Source of the DNA: a virus
Length of the DNA stretch: 41,362 nt
Direction: 5' to 3' (one strand)
Virus genome (UHGV): UHGV-1871327
This document shows, one piece after another, positions 1 to 41,362 of the stretch. Under the pieces are notes generated by a model. It worked only from the letters and a program-made list of their open reading frames with translations. It ran no database searches and had not been told where the DNA came from. Position 1 is the stretch's first letter; each line of letters starts with the position of its first letter. A program made the translations under genes and the position numbers.

Positions 1-15
1 ATTCCTGTTTTGCCT
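1..15. repeat. Copy R1 of the recombination-site-like repeat (attcctgttttgcct); the window starts inside it
   Basis: 15/15 identical to 39648-39662 (R2, same orientation) and to the reverse complement of 40790-40804 (R3). Confidence 0.6.
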
Positions 16-150
16 AATAAGCTCATCCTCGACCGTAGTCTGTTCGCCGTCCTCTGTGGTGTGCGCCACCTGGCCGGAATCCGTCTCAAAATGGTGCTCG
101 TCCCACCCACTTCCATTCGATATTTTAAAAATACTTTTTTTAATGCTCAT
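1..150 (-). CDS. Hypothetical protein, N-terminal part only (reads out of the left window edge across repeat R1)
   Basis: ATG at 150 with RBS GGAGGA (158-163, 7-nt spacer) right after the stop of the upstream collagen-like gene. The translation is Arg-rich, and the alternative +1 frame (..TTVEDELIRQNRN) looks more protein-like, so the frame is uncertain. Confidence 0.25.
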   Translation of the reverse strand, partial: MSIKKSIFKISNGSGWDEHHFETDSGQVAHTTEDGEQTTVEDELIRQNRN

Positions 151-165
151 CGTATCGTCCTCCTA

Positions 166-576
166 TCATGTATCAATCCAAACCGTGCCGCTTGCTACGC
201 CTGTCGGGGCAGATGCCTGTGTGTAGATCTTTGTCCCGTCCGCTCCCTTTGGCCCCGTCGGCCCTGCGGGTCCCCTTGGTCCCTGTGGCCCCGTCGCTCC
301 CGTGTCGCCTTTTTCTCCTTGTGGTCCTTGCGGCCCTTGTGGACCAGTGGGGCCTGTCGCTCCTTTGGCTCCGGTCGCGCCCTTCAGATTTTTAAAGGCA
401 AATGCAAACGTGGGAGCCGCCGTCGTTCCACCCTTTGTCACTGTCACGGACGGGGTGCCTGTGTTTGTATCAACACTGGCGCTGGCGGTAATGCTTGGCG
501 TTGCGCCGGTTGCTCCTCTTGGTCCGGTCGGCCCCTGCGGGCCTACCACGGATCCCAAATCTACCCTGTTTGCCAT
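166..576 (-). CDS. Collagen-like (Gly-X-Y repeat) tail fibre protein
   Basis: Long [15 protein letters not shown]-type collagen triple-helix repeats. N-terminus [16 protein letters not shown] is paralogous to the 581..1834 product. C-terminal ..SGTVWIDT motif. Last gene of the tail operon. Confidence 0.75.
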
Positions 577-580
577 GCTA

Positions 581-1834
581 TCACCCCCAAATTGCGATCA
601 AATGGCCGTTGTCGTCTATCTCAAATGATGGCGTCTGCCCGGCAGGCCCCTGCGGACCAGTTGCGCCTGTATCTCCTTTCGGTCCCTGTGGTCCCGTATC
701 ACCAGTTTCTCCCTTCGGTCCTGTTTCCCCGGTATCGCCCTTCGGACCCTGCGTGCCAGTATCTCCTTTAGGCCCTTGTGCCCCGGTAGCACCACGCGGT
801 ATTGTAAAATTAAATACCGCTGCATTAGAGGTTCCACTATTGCTTACCGCTGCATCACTGCCGGCGGCTCCAGTTGCAACCGTTCCGATTCGGATTGTTG
901 CGGCAGCTCCGGCCGGACCGGTGTCGCCTTTTGGCCCGGTCGCACCAGTAGCTCCAGTGTCACCTTTCTCACCTTTTTCTCCTTGCGGCCCCTGAAGGTC
1001 AGCTACCATCTGGAATCCGGTGATCAGTACGCGGTACCCGGCGGGCAACCCTGATTTTAACGTAATCCCCAGACCGTCAGAATGTTCGGTGAACGCATCG
1101 CCTGACTGTCTGGCGCCATTGACATATAATTGCAGTGCATTGGTGCCAGGATTGAAATTATAGTTCGTCCAGGTAAAATCCGTCTGATTTTCGGTCGTGA
1201 TAAATTCCTTCTGGAATAGGATGTAGCTCTGCGTGCTTCCAGGCGGTCCCTGAATGCCCTGCTCTCCCTGAGGCCCTTGGGGGCCTGTCTCTCCCTGCTC
1301 ACCCTGCGGGCCCTGTGGGCCTGTTGCGCCGCGGCTGGGTTTGCCTGTATCCTGCGACCCCAGAAACCAGTTCCCGTTACTGCCGATCGTAGGCGTGATC
1401 CCGTCATCGCCCGGGTCTCCTTTGGGGCCGGTAGGGCCAGTGGCTCCCGTATCACCTTTCTCGCCCTGCACACCCTGGATCCCCTGTGGGCCAGTAGGCC
1501 CCTGCGGCCCCTGCGGCCCTTGCGGCCCCTGGATACCTGTCGCTCCAGACAGATCACAGATATACTGGTACGCCGTGTCGCCTTTGCAATACAGTTTTCC
1601 GGTATCTGCATCGTTCACATCGCCGGTATCGATCATGACAAACCCACCAATCGCTACCCCGTCCGTGGCATACCCGGCGTTCATGGCTGCTACCGATTCG
1701 TAGATCTTTGCGATTTTAAACGGCTCTCCGGGATCTCCTTTGGGCCCCTGAATGCCCTGGACACCCTGCGGACCCTGCTCTCCGCGAGGACCCTGTGGGC
1801 CTACTACCTTACCTAAGTCTACTGTTGTTGCCAT
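581..1834 (-). CDS. Collagen-like repeat tail fibre protein
   Basis: Several Gly-X-Y blocks separated by globular segments. N-terminus [17 protein letters not shown]-terminus ..[11 protein letters not shown] shares a motif with the upstream 420-aa protein. Confidence 0.8.
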
Positions 1835-1845
1835 ACTGTCCTCCT

Positions 1846-3108
1846 TCAGTCGTCATAAATGGCGATCAGATGCCCATCGCTGTTAATCATCATCTGCGGG
1901 GTTTTTCCATCATCCCCCTTCAGGTCTGTATACTGATAGTTGGATTCATCCTCGCGCTTTACGCCCAGGGATGTTCCCTGCCACCGGTACTGCAGGCTGT
2001 ATCCCCGTGCGCCCATACCCGCAGCGCTGCTACCAGAACCTGTCGTGCCGCCCGTACCTCCGCCAGAAGCTATTTCCTGCCCCAGCGTCTGGACAGGATT
2101 ACCAAATGTGGGAACCACATCGTAGCCGGTTTCGTCCCAGCTTTCTTCCACCTCTGTGATGTAGGCATCCAGGGACACACCGCTGTTTTCCCCAATCACT
2201 GTCACCCGGTCGCCCATCGTCCAACGCTTCCCGTATTCATCGGCCAGAGCGGTCACTTCAAAGCTCTCTTCCGCTACATATTCCGCCAGCTTCGTTTCTC
2301 CCCTGGCCGGAAGCTGCTCCGGGTCCTCGATGTCCCGCGCATCAATCAGGATTTCCCTCCGGGCTTCCCCGGCATAATCATCCCCGACGATCCGCACCTG
2401 CCGATCTGTGCCCTCGCCCTGGCCAGCCACATAAGCACAGTTTTTGGTGTTGCTGTCATTGTAGGTATAGATTTCTTTTTCGATGTTGTCATAACTGCGG
2501 CGGAACACCACCTGCGGGTTAGCATCCTGCGCCAGCGACCGGTCCGTGCCGCCCAGCACCTCAAAGACCTCCTTGCCTGCATCCAGATCCACCCGGATGG
2601 ACAGCCCCAGCATACTGTATTTTGACAGCTCCGACAGGCAATCCAGTAAGCCATCATACCGTGTCTGATAGGACAGCTTCTGGCCGCGTCCCTGGGATGT
2701 CCCACAGGTCAGGTTGGCAAAATTCCGTTTCGGATCCGCGCAGTTCACCGCGTTTTTCTGCACCAGGTCGTACATGATGTTTTCCACATTATCATCGTAG
2801 GCTAAATGCGCCTGCCCTGCAGCGGGTACTGTGATCCGCTGCGACAGCAGCCACAGCAGCGTATATCCTTTAATCGTAACACTGCCGTCGTCTGCAACGT
2901 TGATATACTCAATAATACCGTTCTTCCGGTTGTCCCGGTCCCAGATAATCCGGTTCCCCTGCTGGATATAGGATTCTACCTGATCCAGATAGATCTCAAA
3001 CTGCCCGTAAGTATGCCAGCGGCCTGTAAATATCACAGTTGCTTCATCGGACATTCCCAGAAAATCATAATCCCGGCTGTAAAACCGGACATTCATGTGT
3101 CGATCCAT
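1846..3108 (-). CDS. Phage tail or minor structural protein (possibly Siphovirus Gp37-like)
   Basis: 420 aa, positioned between the distal tail protein and the fibre genes. Gly/Ser-rich linker, then C-terminal ..[13 protein letters not shown]. The family assignment comes from memory of Gp37-like N-termini and is not verified. Confidence 0.55.
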
Positions 3109-3272
3109 ATACTTCCGCTCACCGCCTCACCCGGTTCATCCGTCTGTATGTAGATGTTGCGCCAACCGGTCCCCTGCTGTCTGGCAAACCATTCTTCCCA
3201 TTGCTTCTGAAACTCTGCCACCATATCATTGTATTCCGTCAGATTTTTGGGGCGAATCGCACCGCAAACAGA
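3093..3272 (-). other. -1 frame C-terminal extension ORF (..[37 protein letters not shown])
   Basis: 59-codon open frame overlapping the end of 3239..3706. It is reachable by a -1 slip on C.CCA.AAA (3245-3251). Its C-terminus SGSIWIDT matches the C-terminus of the 166..576 protein (SGTVWIDT). Confidence 0.5.
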
Positions 3273-3706
3273 CTGGTCAAACGCTCATCCGCCACCGTAA
3301 TCGCACCTGCCGGCGTCACAGTAACCCGCGCCAGTGATATTTCCCAGATGCTGCTATCCCGTTGTAGCGTCGGCGGCTGCGGATTGCTGGCCGGTGTGCC
3401 CCGCTTCAGCACTGCCGTAATCGGACCCGTTGCAAGATTAGCCTGCAGCACTACCCGGTCAATGCGGCTGTACTGCGCATCCGGCGTTACCGTCAGGGAT
3501 TTCGCGCTGTCATTGTAATAGTAAAACCCCTTCACAATCGCAAATCCTGTCCCGATCTGTACAGCCCCAGAGCCTCTGGTAACGGCCAACGTCATATTCC
3601 CGGCATCGTCCAGGCTCACGCCAGATTCATACAGGTTGTTAAAATACCGGTTAAACTCCTCCTGCCCGTATAGGGTATCTCCATCATAAAATCCACTGTA
3701 TTCCAT
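3239..3706 (-). CDS. Tail fibre or baseplate protein, main frame (probably extended by a -1 frameshift, see 3093..3272)
   Basis: 155-aa ORF directly downstream of the Dit-like gene. It ends 2 codons after a CCCAAAA slippery heptamer. Confidence 0.55.
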   Translation of the reverse strand: MEYSGFYDGDTLYGQEEFNRYFNNLYESGVSLDDAGNMTLAVTRGSGAVQIGTGFAIVKGFYYYNDSAKSLTVTPDAQYSRIDRVVLQANLATGPITAVLKRGTPASNPQPPTLQRDSSIWEISLARVTVTPAGAITVADERLTSLFAVRFAPKI

Positions 3707-23923: not shown

Positions 23924-24174
23924 TGTCACGGGGAGGGGGGAAGGGAGACGGGGCCGGGCAACCTTTAGGCCCGTCCCTCTCCTACCCCCGTGACGACGCG
24001 CAGCGGAGGGGGAAATATTTACCCCTTTAGGGGTAGTGTCTTCCCCTCCACATGGGGAAGGCTGAATTTCAGTGTTTCCCTCCACATGTCCCATAGGAGG
24101 GGAAGGCTTATTTTTAGTCTTTCCCTCCATATTCTCCACGGAGGGGAAGGCTTAACTTTTAGTGTTCCCCTCCT
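23924..24174. repeat. Origin-like region: long imperfect palindrome plus 3-4 iterons (GGAGGGGAAGGCTTA..TTTTAGT..TTCCCTCC) with about 44-bp spacing
   Basis: Palindrome 23924-23995. Iteron units at 24006-24049, 24051-24088, 24097-24129 and 24141-24174, each itself an inverted repeat (GGAGGGAA...TTCCCTCC). Lies at the 3' end of the primase-helicase gene. Confidence 0.5.
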
Positions 24175-26392
24175 TCTGTTTTTCTGCCTTTTTCCGGACA
24201 ATTCCGTTTTCAATCTCATATCCTCCATGCTCCAGGATCCGGTCGCGGGCTGTTCTTTTGGACACTCCCAGGTAATCTGCCACATCGTCCACGGACGGCT
24301 CATCTCCAAAATTACTGCCTTCAAGCGCCGCCTCTACCGCTCGTCTGCGCTCCGCTTTCCGATCCTTCGCGTTCTTTTTATTGCTTTCTGTGCCCTTTTT
24401 CCAAGGCGGGAGCTCCGCATCTGGCTGGATATCCTTCAGGCTTCCCACCTCGTCTACCTTATGGATCGGATAGCTGAACCACAGGTTCACCGGTTCAAAC
24501 TTCGGAAACTCCCGCAGTGTCCCTTCTATCCGCCAGGCTGACAGATTCCTGACGCGGTTCCGGGCCGCTTCCACCTGTCCCTGCAGGGTCTTGAACTGCC
24601 ATCTGTCCAGCTTGTTTTCGCAGTAATTCAGCATCACGTTGCTGTTCAGCAGGTCGTCCTGGGACAGATCCTCCTGCCATTTGAAATGGGCATCCAGGTA
24701 CAGTCTACAGGCTTCACAGACCGCCTTATTTTCCTCTTGTTTCATCAGTGCTTCCGTCGTATCCAGTTCGATCAGATCCAGAAGCGCATCCGGATCCCGG
24801 GCAAACACGCCGGAGCCAGACGCCCGGTCCATGGATTTCTTCGCGCCCTGGCTGCCCTTGCTGTGATGGTGGCAGTAGATCACCGCGCATCCCAGCTCCG
24901 TACAGACCTTATCAAACTGGTTACAGAAATTCGCCATCTGATCCGCGCTGTTCTCGTCGCCGGTGATGACCTTATAGATCGGATCGATCACAATGGCGAT
25001 ATAGTCCTTTTTTGCTGCTCTCCGGATCAGTTTCGGCGCCAGCTTGTCCATAGGCACGGACCGGCCGCGGAGGTTCCAGATATCAATATTCCGCAGGTTC
25101 TCCGGCCGCCATCCCAGAGCTTCATATACATCCCGGAAGCGGTGCAGGCAGCTTGCCCGATCCAGTTCCAGGTTGACATACATCACCCGCCCTTTCGTAC
25201 AGGGCCAGGAGAGCCATTTCCGCCCCTCTGCGATAGCTATACACAATTCAATCTGCAGGAAGGATTTTCCTGCCTTGCTGGGGCCGGCCAGGAGCATCTT
25301 GTGCCCCTGGCGCAGCACACCGTCTATCAGGCAAGGGGACAGCTCCGGCAGATGGTCCCAGACGCTCTCCAAGCCTTCCGGATCCGGCAGATCATCATTG
25401 ACGCTTTCGATCCACTCCTGCCATTCGTTCCAGGATTCTTTTCCGATATTCGTATCCACCAGAAACTGCTTCCTGCCGGATCGTTCCACACCAGGCATCC
25501 GTGACAGTCTGGAGGGGTTCCGGTTCTGCGTATCTACCTTGATACCGTTCTTCTGGCAGACATCGTATAGATAGTCTACCCGTTTCCGGTATTCGGCGTA
25601 ATCCGCTGCATCAATCCGGACGATCGCGTGCAGGCTCTTCCGGCCGGAATGTACCAGCGCCGCAATCGGCAGCTCCAGCTCACGCAGGATGGCGTTCTGC
25701 TTTTCAATTTCCATGCCGTCGGATTCCACCAGGGCATATCGGAAATCTGATACGTTTTCATTCCGGACGCCCTTTCCATCCAGCGGATTGAAGCGGATCC
25801 AGGCGCCGCCTTCCGGGTCATAATCCCCAATTACGGAACCGATATCCCCGCCGCATTTTGACAGCGCTTCGATCAGCTGGCCGGCGGTACGGTCCCAGCT
25901 CCCACGGTCCTGCGGCACATATTTTCCCTTTTCGTTTTTCCAGCTTTTAACTACATATCCGACATTTTCCCCAGGTTCAAACAGAGTTTCCAAATACCGG
26001 ATCAACTGGCCGGCGGGATCCCAGTGCCTGGGCTCCTGCACCTCCTGGCCTTCGATCCAGTTTTTATCTACCACAACCCGGTCGCTGTCCGTTTGGATAG
26101 TGTCATCCCAGTCCAGCTCATGGCCCCGCTCCGGTACCCATCCGGCATCCATAGCCATCTGCACCAGGGTCCCGCCGGTTACGGGGCTGGCATTTCCCCG
26201 GAAGGTGCTCCATTTCCGCTCACACTCTCCTTTGTGGTACCGGTGCGGATCCCGCTGGCTCCAGGCATCCCAGTCCGCGGCCGCATACCCCTCCTGCTTC
26301 AGGGCCATGCCGACGTTTACCCATTCCTGATACTCCAGGCCGGCAGGATCTATATAGTTCAAAATCTCCAGGAGATCCGTTTTTTGTTCCAT
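24152..26392 (-). CDS. DNA primase-polymerase / replicative helicase fusion (prim-pol N-terminus + AAA_25/RepA-like P-loop domain + C-terminal HTH)
   Basis: 746 aa. Walker A LLAGPSKAGKSFL. C-terminal HTH ..VDDVADYLGVSKRTARDRIL. Confidence 0.8.
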   Translation of the reverse strand: MEQKTDLLEILNYIDPAGLEYQEWVNVGMALKQEGYAAADWDAWSQRDPHRYHKGECERKWSTFRGNASPVTGGTLVQMAMDAGWVPERGHELDWDDTIQTDSDRVVVDKNWIEGQEVQEPRHWDPAGQLIRYLETLFEPGENVGYVVKSWKNEKGKYVPQDRGSWDRTAGQLIEALSKCGGDIGSVIGDYDPEGGAWIRFNPLDGKGVRNENVSDFRYALVESDGMEIEKQNAILRELELPIAALVHSGRKSLHAIVRIDAADYAEYRKRVDYLYDVCQKNGIKVDTQNRNPSRLSRMPGVERSGRKQFLVDTNIGKESWNEWQEWIESVNDDLPDPEGLESVWDHLPELSPCLIDGVLRQGHKMLLAGPSKAGKSFLQIELCIAIAEGRKWLSWPCTKGRVMYVNLELDRASCLHRFRDVYEALGWRPENLRNIDIWNLRGRSVPMDKLAPKLIRRAAKKDYIAIVIDPIYKVITGDENSADQMANFCNQFDKVCTELGCAVIYCHHHSKGSQGAKKSMDRASGSGVFARDPDALLDLIELDTTEALMKQEENKAVCEACRLYLDAHFKWQEDLSQDDLLNSNVMLNYCENKLDRWQFKTLQGQVEAARNRVRNLSAWRIEGTLREFPKFEPVNLWFSYPIHKVDEVGSLKDIQPDAELPPWKKGTESNKKNAKDRKAERRRAVEAALEGSNFGDEPSVDDVADYLGVSKRTARDRILEHGGYEIENGIVRKKAEKQKEGNTKS

Positions 26393-27980: not shown

Positions 27981-28424
27981 TCAGAATCTCCCCGGTTCAA
28001 ATTTCTTCGGCTCTTTCGGATACAGTTTATCGATCCGGTTAAACAGCTTCGAAGGATCATTGGATCCCGGTTCCTGTTTCACTCGGCAGCGCCCGGTCAA
28101 TCCGGGAAGCGCCTGCCAGTTCATTCGCAGCGGTTCCCCTTCCTTTTTCAGCCCTACGCTCCGGAACAGTTCCGACAGTTTCCATTCCAGTTTTGAATGG
28201 AGGAGAAAGTTCTCTCGGATCGTTACATCCCGATCCCGGTCATGGATGGTAAAATAGACAGTCGCCATGTTACAGGGAGGGAGTTTTCCTTCCCCTTTCG
28301 ATCTTCCGCGCTCAAATGTTTCAATGGTAAAATCATAGTCCCCGGCCGGAACCGGCTCAAAATTCTTTCCGTCATCTTGAATGGTATCGCCCCAGTCCAG
28401 CTCTCTTCCCAGTTCTTCGCTCAT
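27981..28424 (-). CDS. DUF669-like phage protein
   Basis: 147 aa. MSEELGRELDWGDTIQDDGKNFEPVPAGDYDFTIE.. Typical partner of AAA_24 ATPases. Confidence 0.5.
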   Translation of the reverse strand: MSEELGRELDWGDTIQDDGKNFEPVPAGDYDFTIETFERGRSKGEGKLPPCNMATVYFTIHDRDRDVTIRENFLLHSKLEWKLSELFRSVGLKKEGEPLRMNWQALPGLTGRCRVKQEPGSNDPSKLFNRIDKLYPKEPKKFEPGRF

Positions 28425-28439
28425 CTCATTTATTCCTCC

Positions 28440-29597
28440 TTAAAATGGTATTTCCTGTTTTTCTTTCATTTCCTTGATTGCTGCGTATACCTGATCCCAG
28501 GACGCTACCAGCAAACCATCCACAATGCCGGGATTCACTGTGTCGTATTCCCAGATTGGCGTGCCAGATGGCACATATCCTTTCGCTTCCACCACATTTT
28601 CCAGGTCCCACTGCGACACATGATTGGCAACCATCAGATCCCGGAGGGATTTGGGCACCCGCGGATCAATCTGTATATCAGATGTATCCGGTTCTGGCAG
28701 GTTCATACTCATCTGCTCTCCAGATTCAGCAGGAGCAGGTTCTTTTGGTGCTGGCGCCGCCTGAGGCTTCGGACGCTCCGTGGTACTTTTGTCCGGCACG
28801 GATACAGTCTGCTGTTTTGCCGGCTGTGCCTTTTCCGGTGCAGGTTTTGCGTCCTCTGGCGCAGCTGTTTCCTCGATAACTCCGGAAATAGAGCTGTATT
28901 CAAACGGCAGTTCGTCCGCCAGCCCATACCGGTTTTTGGCGTCCCAGCAACTATGGTGGGTCGTATAAATGACACGCTTTCCGCCCTGCGCCTTATTTTT
29001 CCCGTCTACTTTAATTACATGGGTTTTGTAATTGGCAAACAGTACCATGTCCGCCCATTCCTTTACCATCGGGGATACGTTCTTGCTGAGCTTCATTTCC
29101 CACCGATCATACGCTCCCATCTCATCTGGCTGCTCAAATTTCCGCATTTTTGCATGGGCTGTCAGGACTACGTTGACTTTTTTCTGCTCCACCAGGTCTG
29201 TCAGAAGGTTCAGCAGCCGGCCAAATTCCTCCTGCAAAAAGACATAGCCCTTTCCATATCCGAAATCTTCAATTCCGGACTTCTGGTATTTACCGCAGAC
29301 AACCGCGGAGCAGAGCTGTTCCGCCCAGTCCGCTGTATCAATCACCAGCGTCTTGCATGCGGATGGATTCTGCATGATATACCGCACTTCCTCCAGCAGC
29401 ATGCTCCAACTGGTGGGCGCCGGCAGCCTGGAAATATCCATGTTGTTCGTGCTGCCCTCCGTATCAATGAATACCGGATCCGGAAACTGGCTGGCAAATG
29501 TAGACTTTCCGATACCCTCCGGCCCGTAGATTACAACTTTCTTCGCACAGGGGATCTTCCCTCTGGTTATTTCCATCAAAATACACCCGCCTTCCAT
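28440..29597 (-). CDS. AAA_24 family ATPase (Sak4-like recombination ATPase)
   Basis: Walker A VVIYGPEGIGKSTFA. Pro/Ala-rich linker, then a C-terminal domain. Confidence 0.7.
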   Translation of the reverse strand: MEGGCILMEITRGKIPCAKKVVIYGPEGIGKSTFASQFPDPVFIDTEGSTNNMDISRLPAPTSWSMLLEEVRYIMQNPSACKTLVIDTADWAEQLCSAVVCGKYQKSGIEDFGYGKGYVFLQEEFGRLLNLLTDLVEQKKVNVVLTAHAKMRKFEQPDEMGAYDRWEMKLSKNVSPMVKEWADMVLFANYKTHVIKVDGKNKAQGGKRVIYTTHHSCWDAKNRYGLADELPFEYSSISGVIEETAAPEDAKPAPEKAQPAKQQTVSVPDKSTTERPKPQAAPAPKEPAPAESGEQMSMNLPEPDTSDIQIDPRVPKSLRDLMVANHVSQWDLENVVEAKGYVPSGTPIWEYDTVNPGIVDGLLVASWDQVYAAIKEMKEKQEIPF

Positions 29598-30865
29598 TCT
29601 TTCTTCGGCTCTTCCGGCTTTTCTGCGCCGGCTACATAACCGTCCTCAATGATGATGCTGCATTCATCCCCGGTGCTGACCCGGGTAGCGATTGCCTGAA
29701 GCCCTTCCGCTTCCAGCCACTCTCCAAACTCCTGCAGCGTATCCAGATCCATCTGCTCCAGCTTGTCCAGCAGGACAAAACCGCATTCCGGGTTCAGCTT
29801 CCGGACAATGGCGGTGGAGACTTTCAGACGGTCAGATCCGGACATGTTATCCCATTTCTGTCCTTTGTAAATCAGCTCCCCGTCCCGGACAGACAGCTCC
29901 GGAAGCGGCAGCTCTGCGGAATTAAGCAGCGCCGCCTTCTCATCCCGCACTTTCTCCAGTTGGTCCGTCAGCCCCTGGTATTGTTTCCGGTACTCCCGGG
30001 CGTCATCTTCCGCTTTTTCCTTGTCCAGGTTGGCGCGAACCTTCCGGTTGATTTCTTCGATGTTTGCGATATTATTTTCCAGTTCCGCGGTAGATTCATC
30101 CTGCAGATCTTTTATGTTCAGAGACGCAACCCGTAAGGATTCCCTGGCTTCTTCCAACTGCTTTCTTTTGAGTTTTAACTGATATTCTATGGATTCTATT
30201 TCCTGGGACAGGGATTCTACACTCTGGCGGTATTTGCCTTCCTGTTCCCGTTTCCGCTGGTTTTCCCCATTCCGCGCAAGGATCTCCTGATGCTGCCGGA
30301 TCAGATCAGACGGTGATACCAGATCTTTTGGGGCTTCCGGGAAATACGGCTGTTCCTTCGCATATTTTTCCTTCTGATCCGCGATCCGACCAATCGCCTG
30401 TCGTTCATTATATAGCTCTGTTTCCTGCTGTTTCATGGCAGTCAACTGTTCTCCGACACCAATGATCTGCAGCAGTGTCTTTGCCTTCTCCTTCCCGGAA
30501 CTTTCCATGAACTTCGGAAGGTTTAGGGCCAGCTTTTCCACGAAACTGTCCAGAAGCTGCTGGCCGGCCTTCTGGCCGGATGGGTCAGTGACTTTCAAGG
30601 CACTGTTCTTGCCTTTTCGCTCCACTACCAGACCGTTGTTCATGACAACTTTCAGGTTTGGCGGGATCACAGACCCTTCCCGGGTCGCTTCTGATGGACG
30701 GAAGGTCTCACCGCCCAAGGCCCAGGCAATCGAATCCAGGACAGAAGTCTTCCCCTGGTTATTCTTACCGCCGATAATCGTGAGGCCGTTTGCGGTTGGC
30801 TCCAGCTTCACGGCCCTGATCCGCTTGACGTTCTCAATTTCCAGTCTGTTTATCTTCATTGACAT
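29576..30865 (-). CDS. SbcC/Rad50-like AAA_23 ATPase
   Basis: N-terminus MSMKINRLEIENVKRI..IIGGKNNQGKTSVLDSI (SMC-type Walker A), long coiled coil, C-terminal ..FVLLDKLEQMD (Walker B/D-loop). Confidence 0.7.
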   Translation of the reverse strand: MSMKINRLEIENVKRIRAVKLEPTANGLTIIGGKNNQGKTSVLDSIAWALGGETFRPSEATREGSVIPPNLKVVMNNGLVVERKGKNSALKVTDPSGQKAGQQLLDSFVEKLALNLPKFMESSGKEKAKTLLQIIGVGEQLTAMKQQETELYNERQAIGRIADQKEKYAKEQPYFPEAPKDLVSPSDLIRQHQEILARNGENQRKREQEGKYRQSVESLSQEIESIEYQLKLKRKQLEEARESLRVASLNIKDLQDESTAELENNIANIEEINRKVRANLDKEKAEDDAREYRKQYQGLTDQLEKVRDEKAALLNSAELPLPELSVRDGELIYKGQKWDNMSGSDRLKVSTAIVRKLNPECGFVLLDKLEQMDLDTLQEFGEWLEAEGLQAIATRVSTGDECSIIIEDGYVAGAEKPEEPKKEWKAGVF

Positions 30866-34262: not shown

Positions 34263-34563
34263 CCTTGACAATATAATATTTTGGGAAAATAAAAACCGGC
34301 CCCTGCGCCAACAGGAGCCGATCAATACGCCCCGCCCGCACTGCAGGCATTCCGGTGGACGATTTTACCATACCGCCTCCGGAGACGATACAGCTTCCCA
34401 ACACCAAGGATATTGTATCATCTTCGGGGCAGCCGTGCAAGCGGAAATACCGCTGGCTGTTATTTTTGTACCCTTTTTTAACTGTATTTTATCGCGTTAA
34501 AAAATTATAGTTAAGATTTTAATTGATTTAGTCAACTAAAAATTGAGATAGGAGGATGATACG

Positions 34564-35661
34564 ATGGCAAAGCGAAAATACTCTCCCGATAAAAACGGCA
34601 TCTACAGCACGCTGGTATGGGACGGCACATACACGCCGGACGGCCGGAAGCACCGCAAGCAGCTCCGGAGCAAAAAATCCAGCGCCGATCTGGAAAAACA
34701 GGTTAGGCAGTTTCAGGCGCAGGTGGAGGCCCGGAAGATCGTGCAGGCCACGGATATGACATTTTGCGAGTACGCCGCCATCTGGCTGCAGCTCTGCAAG
34801 CCAAATGCGGAGCTGAACACTCGGAAGATGTACGAAAATGTGATCTATGTGCATTTCCAGAAGATCGCCGGCATCCGGTTAGATTCCATCTCCCGCGTTC
34901 ACCTGCTCCTGTTATTGGGCGATGTCAACCCGCCCGCGGGCGAAAAAATTTACATGACCTTCCGGCAAGTGATCCAGTCCGCGGTCCATGACAAATACAT
35001 ATCGCCGGCGGCTGCCGCTGATATTTTCGCCGGCGTCCAGCGCCCACGATCAAAGCCGACAGAAAGCCGTCCGCTGACAGAGACGGAGCGCAAAGCTGTA
35101 TTTACAGCCGCCTACAAAAAACCAATGGATCAGGCATTTGCATGGATCATATACGGATGCGGCCTGCGCCGGGAAGAAGCTATATCACTGACCGTTTTTG
35201 ATATAGACCTCAAACGCGCAAATTTGTCCGTAAAACGGGCGACAGCGTTTGATGGCAATAATCCTCAAGGCAAAGGCCCAAAGACGGCAAATGGGGCGCG
35301 TATCGTTCCCCTGCCGGGATTTCTGGCTGACTTCCTGCGGCAGTATATAAAATCCCTTTCCGGATCATTACTGTTCCATACCGCTGACGGCCGGCCCATG
35401 ACAAAATCCGCTTATGACCGGATGTGGGGGCGGATTCGGACGGTGCTGGGTGGCGCGCTGGGAGAACCCTGTACTCTGACCGCTCACAATTTCCGGCACA
35501 ACTACTGTACGATGTTGTGCTACCAGATCCCCAGTATATCCATCAAACGGATCGCGCAGCTTCTCGGTGACACGGAGCAGGTCGTCCTTAAGATCTACAA
35601 TCATATTCTGGCCGAGAAAGAGGATGCCGCCGGTGCGGTGGAACGGGCGCTGTCCATCTAA
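34564..35661 (+). CDS. int: Tyrosine integrase (phage integrase family)
   Basis: 365 aa, RBS AGGAGG. Catalytic residues present: ..GCGLRREEAISL.. (Arg), ..HNFRHNYCT.. (His-x-x-Arg), ..VLKIYNHILA.. (Tyr). Confidence 0.9.
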   Translation: MAKRKYSPDKNGIYSTLVWDGTYTPDGRKHRKQLRSKKSSADLEKQVRQFQAQVEARKIVQATDMTFCEYAAIWLQLCKPNAELNTRKMYENVIYVHFQKIAGIRLDSISRVHLLLLLGDVNPPAGEKIYMTFRQVIQSAVHDKYISPAAAADIFAGVQRPRSKPTESRPLTETERKAVFTAAYKKPMDQAFAWIIYGCGLRREEAISLTVFDIDLKRANLSVKRATAFDGNNPQGKGPKTANGARIVPLPGFLADFLRQYIKSLSGSLLFHTADGRPMTKSAYDRMWGRIRTVLGGALGEPCTLTAHNFRHNYCTMLCYQIPSISIKRIAQLLGDTEQVVLKIYNHILAEKEDAAGAVERALSI

Positions 35662-37595: not shown

Positions 37596-38129
37596 TCAAT
37601 TCCGGCTTCTCATTAATTCGCTGATCTGGTCTGTTTCGCTCATAGGAATCACTTCCAGACTCCGCATGGCGGGCTGCACCTCGCTATGGACATGCCCGTT
37701 TCCCCCTGCATCCTCATAATCCCCAAACACATGCCAGAACGCATCCGCTTCCATTTCCGACCAGGCATGAAGAGGATTCTTCTGCTCACTGGTATAATAC
37801 CTGTAGGATTGCAGGATTCTCTCGCGGAGCTTGTTTCGTTCCCGGCGCTTGTTCTCTTTCTCCATTTTCTCCAAGCGGTTCTGCAAGCCATGAATCGCAT
37901 CCGTGAACTTTTTCTGAATTTCAATGCTCTGCTGTCTCCATTTCGGATACTGTTCAATCTGATCCAGGCATTTTTCCAGCTTTTCGTCCTTTTCCTTCTC
38001 CCGTTCATGCTGTTCAATCAACGTTTTCTTCCATTTTTTGTAGATACGCCATGCAAACAGGACAGCGATAACGAATACCACCACCGTCCCGATTGTGACA
38101 TCGCCAAACGTTTTTATAAATTCCTCCAA
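37596..38129 (-). CDS. Membrane-anchored coiled-coil protein
   Basis: N-terminal TM (VTIGTVVVFVIAVLFAW), then a Lys/Glu-rich coiled coil. Confidence 0.4.
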   Translation of the reverse strand: MEEFIKTFGDVTIGTVVVFVIAVLFAWRIYKKWKKTLIEQHEREKEKDEKLEKCLDQIEQYPKWRQQSIEIQKKFTDAIHGLQNRLEKMEKENKRRERNKLRERILQSYRYYTSEQKNPLHAWSEMEADAFWHVFGDYEDAGGNGHVHSEVQPAMRSLEVIPMSETDQISELMRSRN

Positions 38130-38214
38130 CGGCCCGCCCCTCCTGTACTCTCTGTATATTTTTCTGTCTTTTCAGGCTCTGCTCGTATTCGCATCTGCAT
38201 CCTGTCACCTCATT

Positions 38215-38937
38215 TTAAACAGCCACAAAATAATGTCCAATCAGGGCCGACGGAGGATAAGACAACGTTACAGTCTGGCCGTACATGGATTCAGGATCTG
38301 CAACACCACCACGCTGGCACAGGTAGACGGTATCGCCCTCTTTGTAATACTTGCCATATACATACTCCATTCCGGACGTAGTCACAGTATCCGGTACAGG
38401 GATCGGGTCCTCCAGCGTACCGGCTTCGCTTCCGGATTCCAGCGCCACCCACAGGGACGGGGCAACGCCGGGCTCCCACCCGGGCTGTGATGTGTGATCC
38501 TGCAGGCATTTATACAATATGCCACTGTAAATTTTTCGATCACCAGTTTTGTACTGGACGCCATTCGGGTCATACTCGCCATACAGGTCTTTGACCGTCA
38601 GCGCCTGCTCGTCCGACAAATATGCAATGGCGGTATCTACGGCCGGCGCCTTCAGCTCCTCTTCTGTGAGCTGCCGCAGTCCAAAAATCACCTGCAGTCG
38701 CTCTCCCGCCGGATTTACTTTAAACAGCGGCGCTGTGGTAACCATGTTGCTGTACGTCTCCAGCAGTTCCTCCGTTTTCTGAGATACCCTCTGGATTGCT
38801 GACAGATTGTCCTTTGTCAGCTTCTCGGCCAACCCCTGCAGGTCTGCATATCCGTCCACATACGTAACCAGCCGGGCCGACGTGTATCCCTCCTCGATCT
38901 CCAGCTTTGACTGGTCTTTTAAAATCAGGTTTTCCAT
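38215..38937 (-). CDS. Protein with CBM5/12 (chitin-binding type 3-like) carbohydrate-binding motif; possible receptor-binding or fibre accessory protein
   Basis: RBS AAGGAG before the ATG at 38937. ..YKTGDRKIYSGILYKCLQDHTSQPGWEPGVAPSLWVAL matches the CBM5/12 Y..G..Y.C.Q.HTS..GWEP...SLW signature. Confidence 0.55.
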   Translation of the reverse strand: MENLILKDQSKLEIEEGYTSARLVTYVDGYADLQGLAEKLTKDNLSAIQRVSQKTEELLETYSNMVTTAPLFKVNPAGERLQVIFGLRQLTEEELKAPAVDTAIAYLSDEQALTVKDLYGEYDPNGVQYKTGDRKIYSGILYKCLQDHTSQPGWEPGVAPSLWVALESGSEAGTLEDPIPVPDTVTTSGMEYVYGKYYKEGDTVYLCQRGGVADPESMYGQTVTLSYPPSALIGHYFVAV

Positions 38938-38979
38938 CCTGTTCTCCTTTCTGCCGCTCCCGGCGGCGTAAATAATAAA

Positions 38980-39339
38980 ATGCACAGCAAAACGCACCCC
39001 GGAGGATGCGCTTTGACATGGATTTTATTCGATTTTGATTCCCAAAACAGGAATTTCAACGAGAAATTTCCCAGCAATTACCATATTGAATATGCACAGA
39101 TCGGTTTGGACTACAGTAGCGCAACCGAAATGCGTGGTAATCAGTATTTTACTGGTACCATTTTAAGCGCGGCTGCAACGTTGGAACACACTGCCGGAAC
39201 GCCGACCAAACAGGTGGATCGCGTAATTGTAGACTGCAATTACGGTCAGAACGGACGCTTGGAAGTATATGCACAGGGTGGCGGATTTGTCTCGGGGCAC
39301 AGTTTAATTATCAATGTGATTGCCATTGTGCATGATTAA
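38980..39339 (+). CDS. Cassette P: open frame beginning at the degenerate site S4 (..DSQNRN-FNEKF..)
   Basis: 119-aa ORF. Contains CAAAACAGGAAT at 39043-39054 encoding QNRN in frame. Converges tail-to-tail with cassette M, with overlapping stops in gaTTAAt. Confidence 0.35.
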   Translation: MHSKTHPGGCALTWILFDFDSQNRNFNEKFPSNYHIEYAQIGLDYSSATEMRGNQYFTGTILSAAATLEHTAGTPTKQVDRVIVDCNYGQNGRLEVYAQGGGFVSGHSLIINVIAIVHD

Positions 39340-39590
39340 TTTTCTGGCCCTGCGATTTTGGTCCATGATTTATCAATTGTACCATTTTTAAACCGAATAA
39401 AATAAATATCACCAGACAGTTCAAATGCAATTTTAACTTGACGCGTCCACCCCTCGGAGCCATATGGCAATGTAAATGCCATCATCAGTCCAGGCCAAGC
39501 CGATGGGGCTCCAGATGTATTGGAACCATAGGGGAAAAATGATGGTCCCCAGCAACTGTACACCAAATTACTGCCCTTCATGGCGTCCAA
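39336..39590 (-). CDS. Cassette M: small fibre-tip-like domain, paralogue of 41066..41305
   Basis: ..FFPYGSNTSGAPSAWPGLMMAFT..KIAFELSGDIYF..KSWTKI. The frame is open upstream through R2 (..FGSG-RQNRN-TDTLINGGQNW..) to a stop just beyond the repeat. Confidence 0.45.
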   Translation of the reverse strand: MDAMKGSNLVYSCWGPSFFPYGSNTSGAPSAWPGLMMAFTLPYGSEGWTRQVKIAFELSGDIYFIRFKNGTIDKSWTKIAGPEN

Positions 39591-39645
39591 GCTAAAATCA
39601 AATGCTTTTCCTCCCCAGTTCTGGCCGCCATTAATTAAAGTATCA

Positions 39646-39662
39646 GTATTCCTGTTTTGCCT
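39646..39662. repeat. Site R2 (GTATTCCTGTTTTGCCT, direct orientation)
   Basis: 17/17 inverted match with 40790-40806. 15/15 direct match with 1-15. Confidence 0.7.
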
Positions 39663-39756
39663 GCCGGAACCGAATCACCCCGCCGCCGATCAGCAGACAC
39701 AGCAAACAGGCCGCCCGTTCCGGCCAGCCAAAAAAGTAATTACAATTATCATTACA

Positions 39757-40746
39757 TTATGCCACCAGCCGCCGGAAGGACGCCTTGACCTCATCCGCTC
39801 GGACCGTCACATAAATCATCGTCGTCTCCGGCTTCGCATGGCCGGCGTATACCTGCAGCTCCTGTAGGGACATTCCCCGGGCAGATGCATCTGTCAGCAG
39901 CGTTCTCCGGAATTTGTGCGGATGGGCGTGGATGCCTGCGGCCCGCCCCAGTTTCCGCAGCATAGCCTGTACTGCTTTGGTACTCAACCGCTCATATGGC
40001 GCCCGCAGGCTGACAAACAGCGCCGGATTATCGTCCCGCCGACCCGCCAGGTATTTGCGTAGGTGGTAGGCTGCCTCTTCCGTCAGGCACACCTCCCGTT
40101 CCTTTTTGCCTTTCTGACCATATACGACCACTTCCCGGCCCACGAAATCCACATCTGACCGGTTGAGGGCCAATACCTCTCCGATACGCCCCGCTGTACT
40201 GTACAGCACTTCCATCAGTGCCAGATCTCGCTCCGTTTGCGCCAGACAGCGCAGGTGCTCCCGTTCTTCCGCCGTGTACGGCTTCCGAATCTTCTGGGGC
40301 ACTTTGACGCGCTTCAATCGGCGGGCCGGGTTGCGGTTGATATAACCCTCATCGTTCAGCCAGCCGAAAAAGCCACTGATATACCGCCGCAGTGTATCCA
40401 GATAGGACAGCGATACGCCCCGCTGCTCCTGGTACATCGCCAGGTAGTAACGCAGGTCATTGGTCGTAATGTCCGGCAGCCGCTTATTGATGGCCTGCAT
40501 CAGCATCCGGATACAACGACCGTATCCTTCCAGCGTCCCCTCGCTGCAATTCTCCAGCCGCTTACTCGCCAGATACATCCGCAGGGCCTTTTCCCAGTGT
40601 CGTTCTGACACCACCAGCTCCGTCCGCTCCTCCTGCAGCGTCAGGCCGTGCGTCTTGATCGCCAGCACATTTTCCAGCTTCCGAAGCTGCTCCGGCGCCA
40701 GATCCTCTTGCATGGCAGCCAGTATTTCCGCTATCAGTTTTTCCAT
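39757..40746 (-). CDS. Tyrosine recombinase (XerC/D- or Rci-like) bracketed by inverted sites R2 and R3
   Basis: 329 aa. N-terminal SAM-like domain. Catalytic ..AGRIGEVLAL.. (Arg), ..HPHKFRRT.. (His-x-x-Arg), ..YAGHAKPETTMIYVTV (His and Tyr). Confidence 0.85.
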   Translation of the reverse strand: MEKLIAEILAAMQEDLAPEQLRKLENVLAIKTHGLTLQEERTELVVSERHWEKALRMYLASKRLENCSEGTLEGYGRCIRMLMQAINKRLPDITTNDLRYYLAMYQEQRGVSLSYLDTLRRYISGFFGWLNDEGYINRNPARRLKRVKVPQKIRKPYTAEEREHLRCLAQTERDLALMEVLYSTAGRIGEVLALNRSDVDFVGREVVVYGQKGKKEREVCLTEEAAYHLRKYLAGRRDDNPALFVSLRAPYERLSTKAVQAMLRKLGRAAGIHAHPHKFRRTLLTDASARGMSLQELQVYAGHAKPETTMIYVTVRADEVKASFRRLVA

Positions 40747-40789
40747 ACCTTCTCACCTCCGGCTCCAGCATAACACCGGAGGCAGTAGT

Positions 40790-40806
40790 AGGCAAAACAG
40801 GAATAC
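40790..40806. repeat. Site R3 (AGGCAAAACAGGAATAC, inverted orientation)
   Basis: Perfect reverse complement of R2. On the plus strand it encodes ..GGSS-RQNRN-TIIVEF.., heading an 80-codon open frame that ends at 41035 (cassette C). Confidence 0.7.
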
Positions 40807-41065
40807 GATCATTGTTGAATTCCACCACTGCAAACCCGGCCAATCCTGGTATATTGTATCTCAACGATCGGGATATGCTTTGATTGCTGCTTATAATATA
40901 CGTAATGATACCACTGACCGAGTCAGCGGCATCCAAAAACGGACAAGTGGAGACTATACAATTATGTTTGCCAGTACGCCCGCCGGCGAACTGGACCTAT
41001 GGTTGGTATGGGCTAAAGTTGGAATGAGTGAATAAATTAGTTTTCACCAGCGCACCAATGGATAA

Positions 41066-41305
41066 TTACTGTGCTGGTGCAATCCGTGTCCAGGCTTTTA
41101 CTACTTCTCCGGTTTCTGACTTCTGGACCATATAATATATCTCGCCATTATATGTAAATGCATATTTTATATGATAATTATCACTACCTTGGTAGACAGT
41201 TGCAGCAATCATAAACCCCGACCAATTAGTGGGGGCTCCTGCAGTGTAGTTTCCATACGGGAAGAATCCATCATAGGCGCCATAAGTTAAATCTGATGGA
41301 TTCAT
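41066..41305 (-). CDS. Cassette D: small fibre-tip-like domain, paralogue of 39336..39590. Its frame stays open upstream to the right window edge.
   Basis: ..FFPYGNYTAGAPTNWSGFMIAAT..IKYAFTYNGEIYY..KAWTRI. The 19 codons upstream of the annotated M are open (VEILNSVDFNQSGRALKIE-M..) and homologous to the region upstream of cassette M. Confidence 0.45.
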   Translation of the reverse strand: MNPSDLTYGAYDGFFPYGNYTAGAPTNWSGFMIAATVYQGSDNYHIKYAFTYNGEIYYMVQKSETGEVVKAWTRIAPAQ

Positions 41306-41362
41306 TTCTATTTTTAACGCTCTACCGGATTGATTAAAATCGACCGAATTTAAAATTTCGAC

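Follow-up and report, generated by a model that had tools for sequence, protein, structure and literature searches.

Structure of the locus

The DNA analyzed here, called the window, is the whole 41,362 nucleotides of the UHGV virus genome UHGV-1871327. At its right end lies a gene for a second tyrosine recombinase, surrounded by copies of a short sequence and by four coding cassettes, and at its left edge lies the short constant gene to which these cassettes belong. Read along the constant gene, the order is constant part / D> <C / REC> / M> <P / CBM, with REC as the recombinase gene, D, C, M and P as the cassettes and CBM as the gene of a CBM_5_12 protein. The features of this candidate multiple-inversion system (shufflon) and of its neighbors are listed in Table 1. 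Related assemblies are referred to by L numbers and related proteins by P numbers.

Table 1. Features of the candidate shufflon and of neighboring genes in the window (aa, amino acids)
Feature	Position	Strand	Remarks
Constant N-terminal segment, 50 aa, MSIKKSIFKISNGSGWDEHHFETDSGQVAHTTEDGEQTTVEDELIRQNRN	150..1	-	ATG at 150..148, GGAGGA at 163..158; last four codons are R1
Site R1	1..15 (core 1-12)	-	Junction of constant part and expressed cassette; 15 nt in common with R2 and R3
Site S4	39038..39054 (core 39043-39054)	+	Outermost site; only the 12-nt core in common with the other sites
Cassette P, 94 codons and stop	39055..39339	+	Silent; tail-to-tail with M
Cassette M, 103 codons and stop	39336..39647	-	Silent; paralogue of D
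Site R2	39646..39662 (core 39648-39659)	-	Direct relative to R1
Xer-like armless tyrosine recombinase, 329 aa	39757..40746	-	Inside invertible DNA, between R2 and R3
Site R3	40790..40806 (core 40793-40804)	+	Inverted relative to R1; perfect 17-bp inverted repeat of R2
Cassette C, 76 codons and stop	40805..41035	+	Silent; tail-to-tail with D
Cassette D, 98 codons and stop	41066..41362	-	Expressed; continuous with the constant part over the circular join; D/M-type head
Two collagen-like tail-fiber genes	166..1834	-	Directly upstream of the constant segment
Phage integrase ("first" tyrosine recombinase)	34564..35661	+	Outside the shufflon
CBM_5_12 carbohydrate-binding protein gene	38215..38937	-	Fixed right border of the shufflon; family match; same position in L121-L129

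Recombination sites

The 12-nt core CAAAACAGGAAT is present in four exact copies in the window. By chance a mean of 0.15 matches is expected, and none of 100 dinucleotide-preserving shuffles reached five. The core is asymmetric (not palindromic), so that each copy has a direction. Along the gene the four sites alternate in orientation (+ - + -) and bound three invertible segments; R2 and R3 flank the recombinase gene at distances of 94 and 43 bp from its ends. Each core is read in frame as QNRN and heads a cassette of about 80-107 codons that is open to a stop codon. At S4, the core and the five bases before it form a perfect dyad, ATTCC-CAAAACA-GGAAT (39038-39054), from which the 7-bp overlap CAAAACA is suggested as the cleavage region.

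An initial annotation, made from the letters of the window alone, had reported the four copies, the perfect inverted repeat of R2 and R3 on both sides of the recombinase and the QNRN frame opening every cassette. All of these positions, distances and frames were reproduced, and its judgment that such repeats are very unlikely by chance agrees with the expectation given above.

A fifth copy of the core with one mismatch (CAAAACTGGAAT) was found at 28184-28195 (-), in a divergent intergenic region just before the open reading frame (ORF) 28197-29639. It lies 13 kb from the shufflon and is probably a chance match. The 15-mer AGGCAAAACAGGAAT was also searched in IMG/VR, where more than 120 single-copy matches were obtained; none of them encodes relatives of the recombinase or of the cassettes, and they were set aside as chance.

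Constant part, cassettes and circular join

The constant gene starts seven bases after its ribosome-binding site (GGAGGA) and runs off the left edge of the window through R1. If the end of the window is joined to its start, an unbroken ORF of 148 aa is obtained (MSIKK...EDELIRQNRN + VEILNSVDF...RIAPAQ*). This circular join is real, since the junction of core and D (CAAAACAGGAAT+GTCGAAATTTTAAATTCGG) is uninterrupted in the independent contigs L229 and L230 (99.4-99.5% identical across it), the constant part runs into the core in L231, and the order of fiber genes, constant part with cassette, recombinase, cassettes, CBM protein and lysis genes is contiguous in L121 and L122. The window is the circularly permuted genome of a temperate siphophage. 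R1 and D form one junction, with D being expressed and C, M and P being silent.

The cassettes are arranged tail-to-tail. The stops of P and M overlap in the sequence TTAA (39336-39339), while the ends of C and D are 30 bp apart. D and M are 38% identical, and P and C are unrelated to D/M at E<=1e-3. An in-frame TGA is located five codons upstream of the Q codon of M. The initial annotation had described the same convergent geometry, had named M and D as paralogues and had regarded M as silent, all in line with these data. It was also right to suspect that D is the copy now fused to a constant region. Its unseen frame beyond the left edge after R1 turned out to be cassette D itself, and the constant 5' gene, which it had placed past the window edges, is found inside the window.

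The initiation regions of the constant gene (148-167) and of the integrase gene (34547-34566) are identical in 19 of 20 positions, in opposite orientation, and share the sequence GATAGGAGGA(C/T)GATACGATG.

The embedded recombinase

The protein encoded between R2 and R3 consists of a SAM-like core-binding domain (PF13495) and a catalytic domain (PF00589, 1.4e-31), with no arm-binding domain. Its catalytic set is complete (R187, K215, H277, R280, H303 and Y312). In an NCBIfam scan only Xer, integron-integrase and FimB/E-type models were matched, all of them under their cut-offs: XerA with 196.8 bits (cut-off 220), XerC with 128 (cut-off 335) and XerD with 110 (cut-off 330). The closest solved relative is an XerC-like protein (PDB 4a8e, 7e-30). 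The enzyme had been annotated initially as an Xer/Rci-like tyrosine recombinase. The Xer likeness and an intact catalytic set were found; as to Rci, the NCBIfam scan gave no significant match to a model of that type, a direct comparison with the Rci sequence not being part of it.

Relatives of the recombinase number 86 in IMG/VR and 239 in a metagenome collection, and most of the contigs listed are human-gut assemblies. Human-gut phages of the Clostridia type carry more than 300 related loci. Relatives with 58-70% identity are encoded, apparently in prophage copies, by Lachnospiraceae genomes, among them Blautia glucerasea, Lachnotalea and Bilifractor, and among cultured phages no relative above 42% identity was found. 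In a metagenome-assembled genome of Methanobrevibacter, two copies of a relative with 36% identity are located on one contig (L221, L222).

Recombination products in related assemblies

Every predicted recombination product is found in related assemblies, with breakpoints exactly at the core. The same 50-aa N-terminus is followed by an M-type cassette in P0004, the cassette protein of which is identical to that of the window, and in L231, the DNA of which is 99.7% identical. It is followed by a P-type cassette in P0006, P0009, P0007 and P0013, by a C-type cassette in P0008, P0010 and P0011, and by a D-like cassette in P0002 and P0003.

Inversions can be seen by pairwise alignment. The human-gut contigs L232 and L233, with recombinases 95% identical to that of the window, are collinear save for an inverted cassette pair of 0.5 kb, which lies between two cores; the alignments abut at these cores. 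In L126 the recombinase and constant genes run antiparallel, and in the window and in L121-L125 they are parallel. In L229 and L230, the D-C pair (99.5% identical over 585 nt) occupies the slot of the M-P pair of the window, between the recombinase and the CBM gene, again with the joints at cores. This state can be reached from that of the window by three inversions.

A deletion was found in L127-129, which come from three samples and have flanks 96-99.6% identical to those of L126 (L129: 99.3-99.6%). These loci lack about 1.7 kb, comprising the recombinase and one cassette pair. The alignments on the two sides have exactly the 10-bp core in common, and the site that remains is a hybrid, its left flank coming from one parental site and its right flank from the other. 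Recombination between direct copies is expected to give such a product. Cassette exchange between otherwise dissimilar DNA is also seen: L133 (6109-6676) and L126 (7816-8384) are 99.3% identical from site to site.

Conservation of the sites and assembly behavior

The copies of the core are alike within each genome and vary between genomes (AAACAGGAA, AAACAGCAA, AAACAGTAA, AAATAGTAA, AAATAGTGA, AAATAGCAA and AAATAGGCA). One variant per genome, differing from genome to genome, is the pattern of concerted evolution.

The family occurs in two designs. The layout of the window, with four sites arranged as '+- REC +-', was found in 41 loci. Distant relatives (L173, L297, L168, L310 and others), with recombinases 61-64% identical to that of the window, carry arrays of up to 14 sites (AAATAGTAA or AAATAGCAA) with a spacing of about 250-310 bp. 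In these arrays all sites point toward the recombinase, the upstream ones being '+' and the downstream ones '-'. The split between the two sides varies by locus, which is expected if inversions always include the recombinase.

Repeats of 12-17 bp break assemblies made with longer k-mers only if the reads disagree there. Among 80 IMG/VR loci, 29 contig ends lie within 500 bp of the recombinase gene, compared to about 6 expected. In a cultured Lachnotalea isolate, a contig of 1214 bp (L212) consists of the recombinase segment alone, with 17-bp terminal inverted repeats, and the outer edge of a core is also where the window begins. All of these are indirect signs that alternative configurations may co-exist. 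The clustering of contig ends agrees with the proposal of the initial annotation that a heterogeneous site had interrupted the assembly. The count of site-like 9-mers near contig ends (39 compared to 17 expected) was based on a loose pattern and is only weakly informative. Three SPAdes metagenome contigs with the recombinase (L240, L273 and L306) have perfect terminal inverted repeats of exactly 55 bp ending at a site. They would fit two orientations within one sample but were rejected as decisive proof, since an inverted repeat of 55 bp or more in the genome would look the same.

Target protein

The target gene is located between the collagen-like fiber genes and the conserved CBM_5_12 protein with the lysis genes. 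Profile searches of Pfam, PHROGs and PDB gave nothing usable for the constant part or for any cassette, and no PilV domain was found in the target protein. For the structure prediction with AlphaFold, an alignment of 26 sequences was used; an earlier model from 6 sequences was too poor, with a predicted local distance difference test (pLDDT) of 58. The predicted protein consists of a small N-terminal beta unit, a helix (residues 40-55) spanning the residues encoded by the site, and a C-terminal beta-sandwich. This beta-sandwich head of the D/M cassette has a pLDDT of about 90, and its best structural matches are phage receptor-binding and fiber-tip proteins.

In an exhaustive profile search, only 82 clusters of the D/M head were obtained. 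In every longer homologue the head is located at the extreme C-terminus, for example at residues 745-823 of 824 or 696-776 of 776. Two of the longer homologues have N-terminal parts that match PHROGs annotated as 'tail fiber protein and host specificity'; in a third, this part matches PHROGs of collagen-like tail fibers. The cassette heads are therefore most likely the receptor-binding tips of a tail fiber, judging by position, predicted fold and homologues. A tail-fiber or receptor-binding protein had already been proposed as the target in the initial annotation, and all three lines of evidence agree with it.

Cassettes of the D/M type are also found behind other constant parts, one of them with the sequence MAQLN...KKYVDD...ELNSN and another, of 171 aa, in L232. 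The distant array-type locus L173 has its own constant part of 70 aa, ending in ALNELNSK. All of these end in ELN(R/S)(N/K). The cassettes bounded by sites may act as portable modules, being present on at least four unrelated fiber N-termini with this ending.

Proposed mechanism and alternative explanations

Considering these results together, the locus is very probably a shufflon in the late tail operon, by which four C-terminal heads are swapped on a constant N-terminus. In the proposed mechanism, the constant part of 50 aa would end in a helix, the last four codons of which (QNRN) are the recombination core. Acting on two inverted copies, the embedded recombinase would exchange strands inside their identical, asymmetric cores and thereby invert the DNA between them. 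Recombination of R1 with R3 would place C behind the constant part, and recombination of R1 with S4 would place P there and flip the recombinase gene as well. A further inversion of the R1 x R2 type after the latter would lead to the expression of M, while R2 x R3 would flip the recombinase gene alone. The outcome would be four proteins that have the N-terminus in common and differ in their C-terminal heads (about 76-103 aa). As every inversion keeps the alternation of site orientations, 2 segment orders and 2^3 orientations, i.e. 16 configurations, would be possible. Recombination between direct copies would delete the recombinase and freeze the locus, as in the deleted loci L127-129.

By the swapping of heads, the range of bacteria to which the phage attaches is probably changed. 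The long-range inversions would also flip the recombinase relative to the late operon, and switching may thus regulate itself. What we infer from this arrangement is where the core is cleaved, how frequent switching is, any influence of the orientation of the recombinase gene on its expression, and the consequence for host range.

The initial annotation had arrived at a shufflon, too, and all the parts of one are present: in-frame sites, tail-to-tail cassettes, a bracketed recombinase, a constant gene and recombination products. That interpretation stands. What it missed was the circular nature of the window, which makes D the expressed copy and puts the constant part inside the window, and the fact that Rin-type phage shufflons have already been described.

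Several results weigh against the shufflon interpretation. The recombination products come from related and not from identical phages, and inversion in the population of this phage itself is predicted from them. The exact junction of constant part and site of this phage has no match in IMG/VR or in the metagenome collection, and a look-up of the exact recombinase protein gave no record. It is linkage that points to the embedded recombinase as the catalyst. In a promoter and terminator scan of 38000-41362 the hits were at chance level, with no above-chance promoter for the recombinase. The P and C cassettes match no family of Pfam or PHROGs.

The first of these results is also what a locus static today would give, with the 12-mer being the DNA of a conserved linker motif (ELxxQNRN) of paralogous cassettes and the rearrangements being rare evolutionary events, e.g. 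homologous or illegitimate recombination at a short common sequence. All rearrangements are found between different assemblies with 86-99% identity and none within one sample, and throughout the family the site indeed codes for a conserved peptide, ELN(R/S)(N/K). However, a conserved peptide does not account for cores that are identical at every position, third codon positions included, next to flanks that diverge abruptly, nor for the same variant at all copies of a genome when variants differ between genomes. More than 300 loci combine the sites with a dedicated recombinase, and the only forms without it are exact site-to-site deletions. The contig ends that pile up at the locus (as in L212 and at the start of the window) would not be caused by repeats of 12-17 bp alone. 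Such a frozen mosaic is thus considered unlikely.

The use of the sites in trans, by the phage integrase (34564-35661) or by a Xer protein or invertase of the host, appears very unlikely. The embedded enzyme would then have another role, e.g. the resolution of genome dimers, and it does score best against Xer models; yet it remains under the cut-offs of all Xer equivalog models. A second tyrosine recombinase is encoded in the window and trans-acting invertases are known (Mpi; PMC6109161), but the sites always bracket the embedded gene whatever the integrase of the phage (serine-type in L121, tyrosine-type in L124), and the loss of this gene coincides with a reduced locus of two cassettes. There is hardly any probability left for a small mobile element that brought the recombinase with it when it was inserted beside the tail genes, and of which the repeats would be the att- or dif-like ends. 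The sites number four and not two, each of them is in frame and heads a cassette of ORF length, one lies inside an expressed gene, and the arrangement is conserved beside the same gene class in hundreds of phages. The 17-bp inverted repeats flanking the recombinase segment, its site-to-site deletion and the site-bounded segments common to otherwise unrelated phages (L133, L126) would suit such an element, whereas the inversion products, which are seen in addition to excision, would not.

Three further candidates were rejected. For a diversity-generating retroelement, no pattern of template and variable repeats was found, a reverse-transcriptase scan of the window not having been made. A serine invertase does not agree with the enzyme at the locus, which belongs to PF00589 and has the R-K-H-R-H-Y set. 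Dimer resolution by Xer/dif does not agree with the Xer scores below cut-off and with four sites within coding frames instead of one dif.

Comparison with known systems

The closest parallel to the shufflon of the window is Rin, a tyrosine-recombinase phage shufflon of Bifidobacterium breve and Bifidobacterium longum prophages with read-level proof (Mavrich et al., 2018; PMC6109161), of which a similar type is also found in Eggerthella lenta prophages (PMC8778435). For the comparison, 60 genuine Rin loci were fetched via their rix arrays, and the Rin protein was taken from L329 (1578-2468). Both systems are encoded by phages and located in the tail module, and both join the constant N-terminus of a receptor-binding protein to one of several dissimilar C-terminal cassettes (about 75-105 aa). 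Both use a short asymmetric in-frame repeat, 11 bp in Rin and 12 bp in the window, and an armless, Xer-like tyrosine recombinase. In L232, a close relative with a recombinase 95% identical to that of the window, the 171-aa constant part shows homology to Rc, the constant part of Rin loci, which is of the lactococcal-1358-like N-terminal family of receptor-binding proteins (E 3e-17, both phrog_9994).

The differences are in the site, the enzyme and the design. The core of the window is CAAAACAGGAAT, while the rix sequence is TTCCCTAACCC. Outside the catalytic motif the recombinase of the window has no detectable relationship to Rin: BLASTP gave an E-value of 0.14, with 25% identity in a stretch of 40 aa surrounding this motif, and no tblastn match at 1e-3 was found in the 60 Rin loci. 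In the window the recombinase gene is located within invertible DNA between two cassette pairs and is itself invertible, whereas Rin is located at the end of the array. The constant part of the window has only 50 aa and matches no family. The nearest genomic relatives of its recombinase are Lachnospiraceae and not Actinobacteria, the phage's own host not being established. From these comparisons the system appears to work like Rin, and like R64 in its tail-to-tail geometry, but no orthology of its recombinase to Rin is detectable.

A 155-aa protein encoded separately at 3239-3706 (-) resembles by eye the N-terminal domain of receptor-binding proteins that forms the constant part in L232 and in the Bifidobacterium Rin loci (motif ...RIDRVVLQ...KRGTPASNPQPP...). 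In the window its gene is not shuffled, and its PHROG matches are phrog_5339 and phrog_9534 (virion structural, head), not phrog_9994.

In the R64/IncI1 shufflon, the tyrosine recombinase Rci reportedly acts on sfx sites, and the target is said to be PilV, an adhesin of the conjugative thin pilus. The rci gene is reportedly located outside the invertible segments, and Rci is said to perform inversions only. Common to R64 and the window are a tyrosine recombinase, multiple inversions, asymmetric in-frame sites that are only partly conserved, and tail-to-tail cassettes, by which each segment offers two alternative C-termini to one N-terminus. In the window, in contrast, the target is a phage tail protein instead of an adhesin of a conjugative pilus, the recombinase lies inside invertible DNA, and deletion products occur in the family.

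In phase-variable hsdS loci of type I restriction-modification systems (pneumococcal creX/SpnD39III), a tyrosine recombinase is located among inverted half-gene cassettes. The embedded recombinase and the re-assortment of specificity domains by inversion at short in-frame repeats are similar to the window. The target there is the DNA-specificity subunit of a cellular restriction system and not a virion protein.

The exchange of the C-terminal receptor-binding part of a fiber by inversion is also known from Gin, Cin, Pin and Min (Mu, P1, e14 and p15B) and from the Gin shufflon FR-phi (PMC13418256); Min and FR-phi have several segments, as in the window. These enzymes are serine invertases with an enhancer and Fis, whereas the enzyme of the window is a tyrosine recombinase (PF00589). 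In addition, their invertible segment carries a gene for a fiber-assembly chaperone, while the cassettes of the window are head domains only. For BV01-like phages of Phocaeicola, a multi-cassette tail-fiber shufflon with read-level evidence of all configurations has been described (PMC13596623, 2026 preprint). As in the window, a temperate gut phage is concerned, and the shufflon, with directional motifs of 10 bp, overlaps the distal end of a carbohydrate-binding tail-fiber gene. The host phylum and the motif (TGGGAGAACT) are different, and the recombinase flanks the cassettes; this system is set apart by its description and not by sequence.

Novelty and significance

The principle of a phage shufflon with a tyrosine recombinase is already known, and the enzyme, site and design of the family described here are distinct. 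No description of a Firmicutes-type shufflon family, including Lachnospiraceae, Blautia, Ruminococcus and Faecalibacterium, was found in the literature searched, the journal coverage of which is incomplete. On a joint reading of all results, these loci would form a large undescribed shufflon family of Clostridia-type gut phages, with an Xer-like recombinase recruited independently of Rin and always located inside invertible DNA, with two designs, with portable cassettes and with switching that may regulate itself. For this reading in all its parts we would claim slightly less than an even chance.

Host range is the main barrier to the use and understanding of gut phages, and the majority of those infecting Lachnospiraceae and related Clostridia have not been cultured. 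An Xer-like recombinase flanked by in-frame cores of 9-12 bp could serve as a signature for automatic annotation. Such annotation would explain many broken phage assemblies and flag receptor-binding genes that are otherwise unrecognizable. For engineering, it would also provide naturally occurring collections of binding heads that can be exchanged at defined fusion points. The family represents the same solution as Rin of Bifidobacterium with a different recombinase, in some relatives on a homologous receptor-binding protein. With four sites and one enzyme of 329 aa, the window is a compact test case for how armless tyrosine recombinases favor inversion over deletion.

Genome context and additional observations

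The window encodes a complete temperate siphophage, with terminase, portal, capsid, a tape measure protein of 1531 aa, Dit, a Sipho_Gp37 baseplate protein, two collagen-like fiber proteins, an endolysin and a separate integrase. The genes follow one another as tape measure, Dit, Sipho_Gp37, collagen-like fibers, constant part with cassette, recombinase, cassettes, CBM protein and holin/lysin. Together with the synteny in L121 and L122, this order confirms the location of the shufflon in the tail module.

Successive tail proteins encoded on the minus strand at 166-3224 share short C-terminal tags. One pair is ...GHLIAIYDD (3108..1846) and ...GHLIAIWG (1834..581), and the other is ...SIWIDT (3224..3093) and ...TVWIDT (576..166). 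These tags may serve docking or trimerization.

At 24054-24174, three copies of a 30-45-bp unit, GGGGAAGGCT.A.TTT.AGT.TTTCCCTCC, were found, two of them direct and one inverted. The repeats adjoin the primase/helicase gene (26392..24152) and may be iterons of a replication origin.

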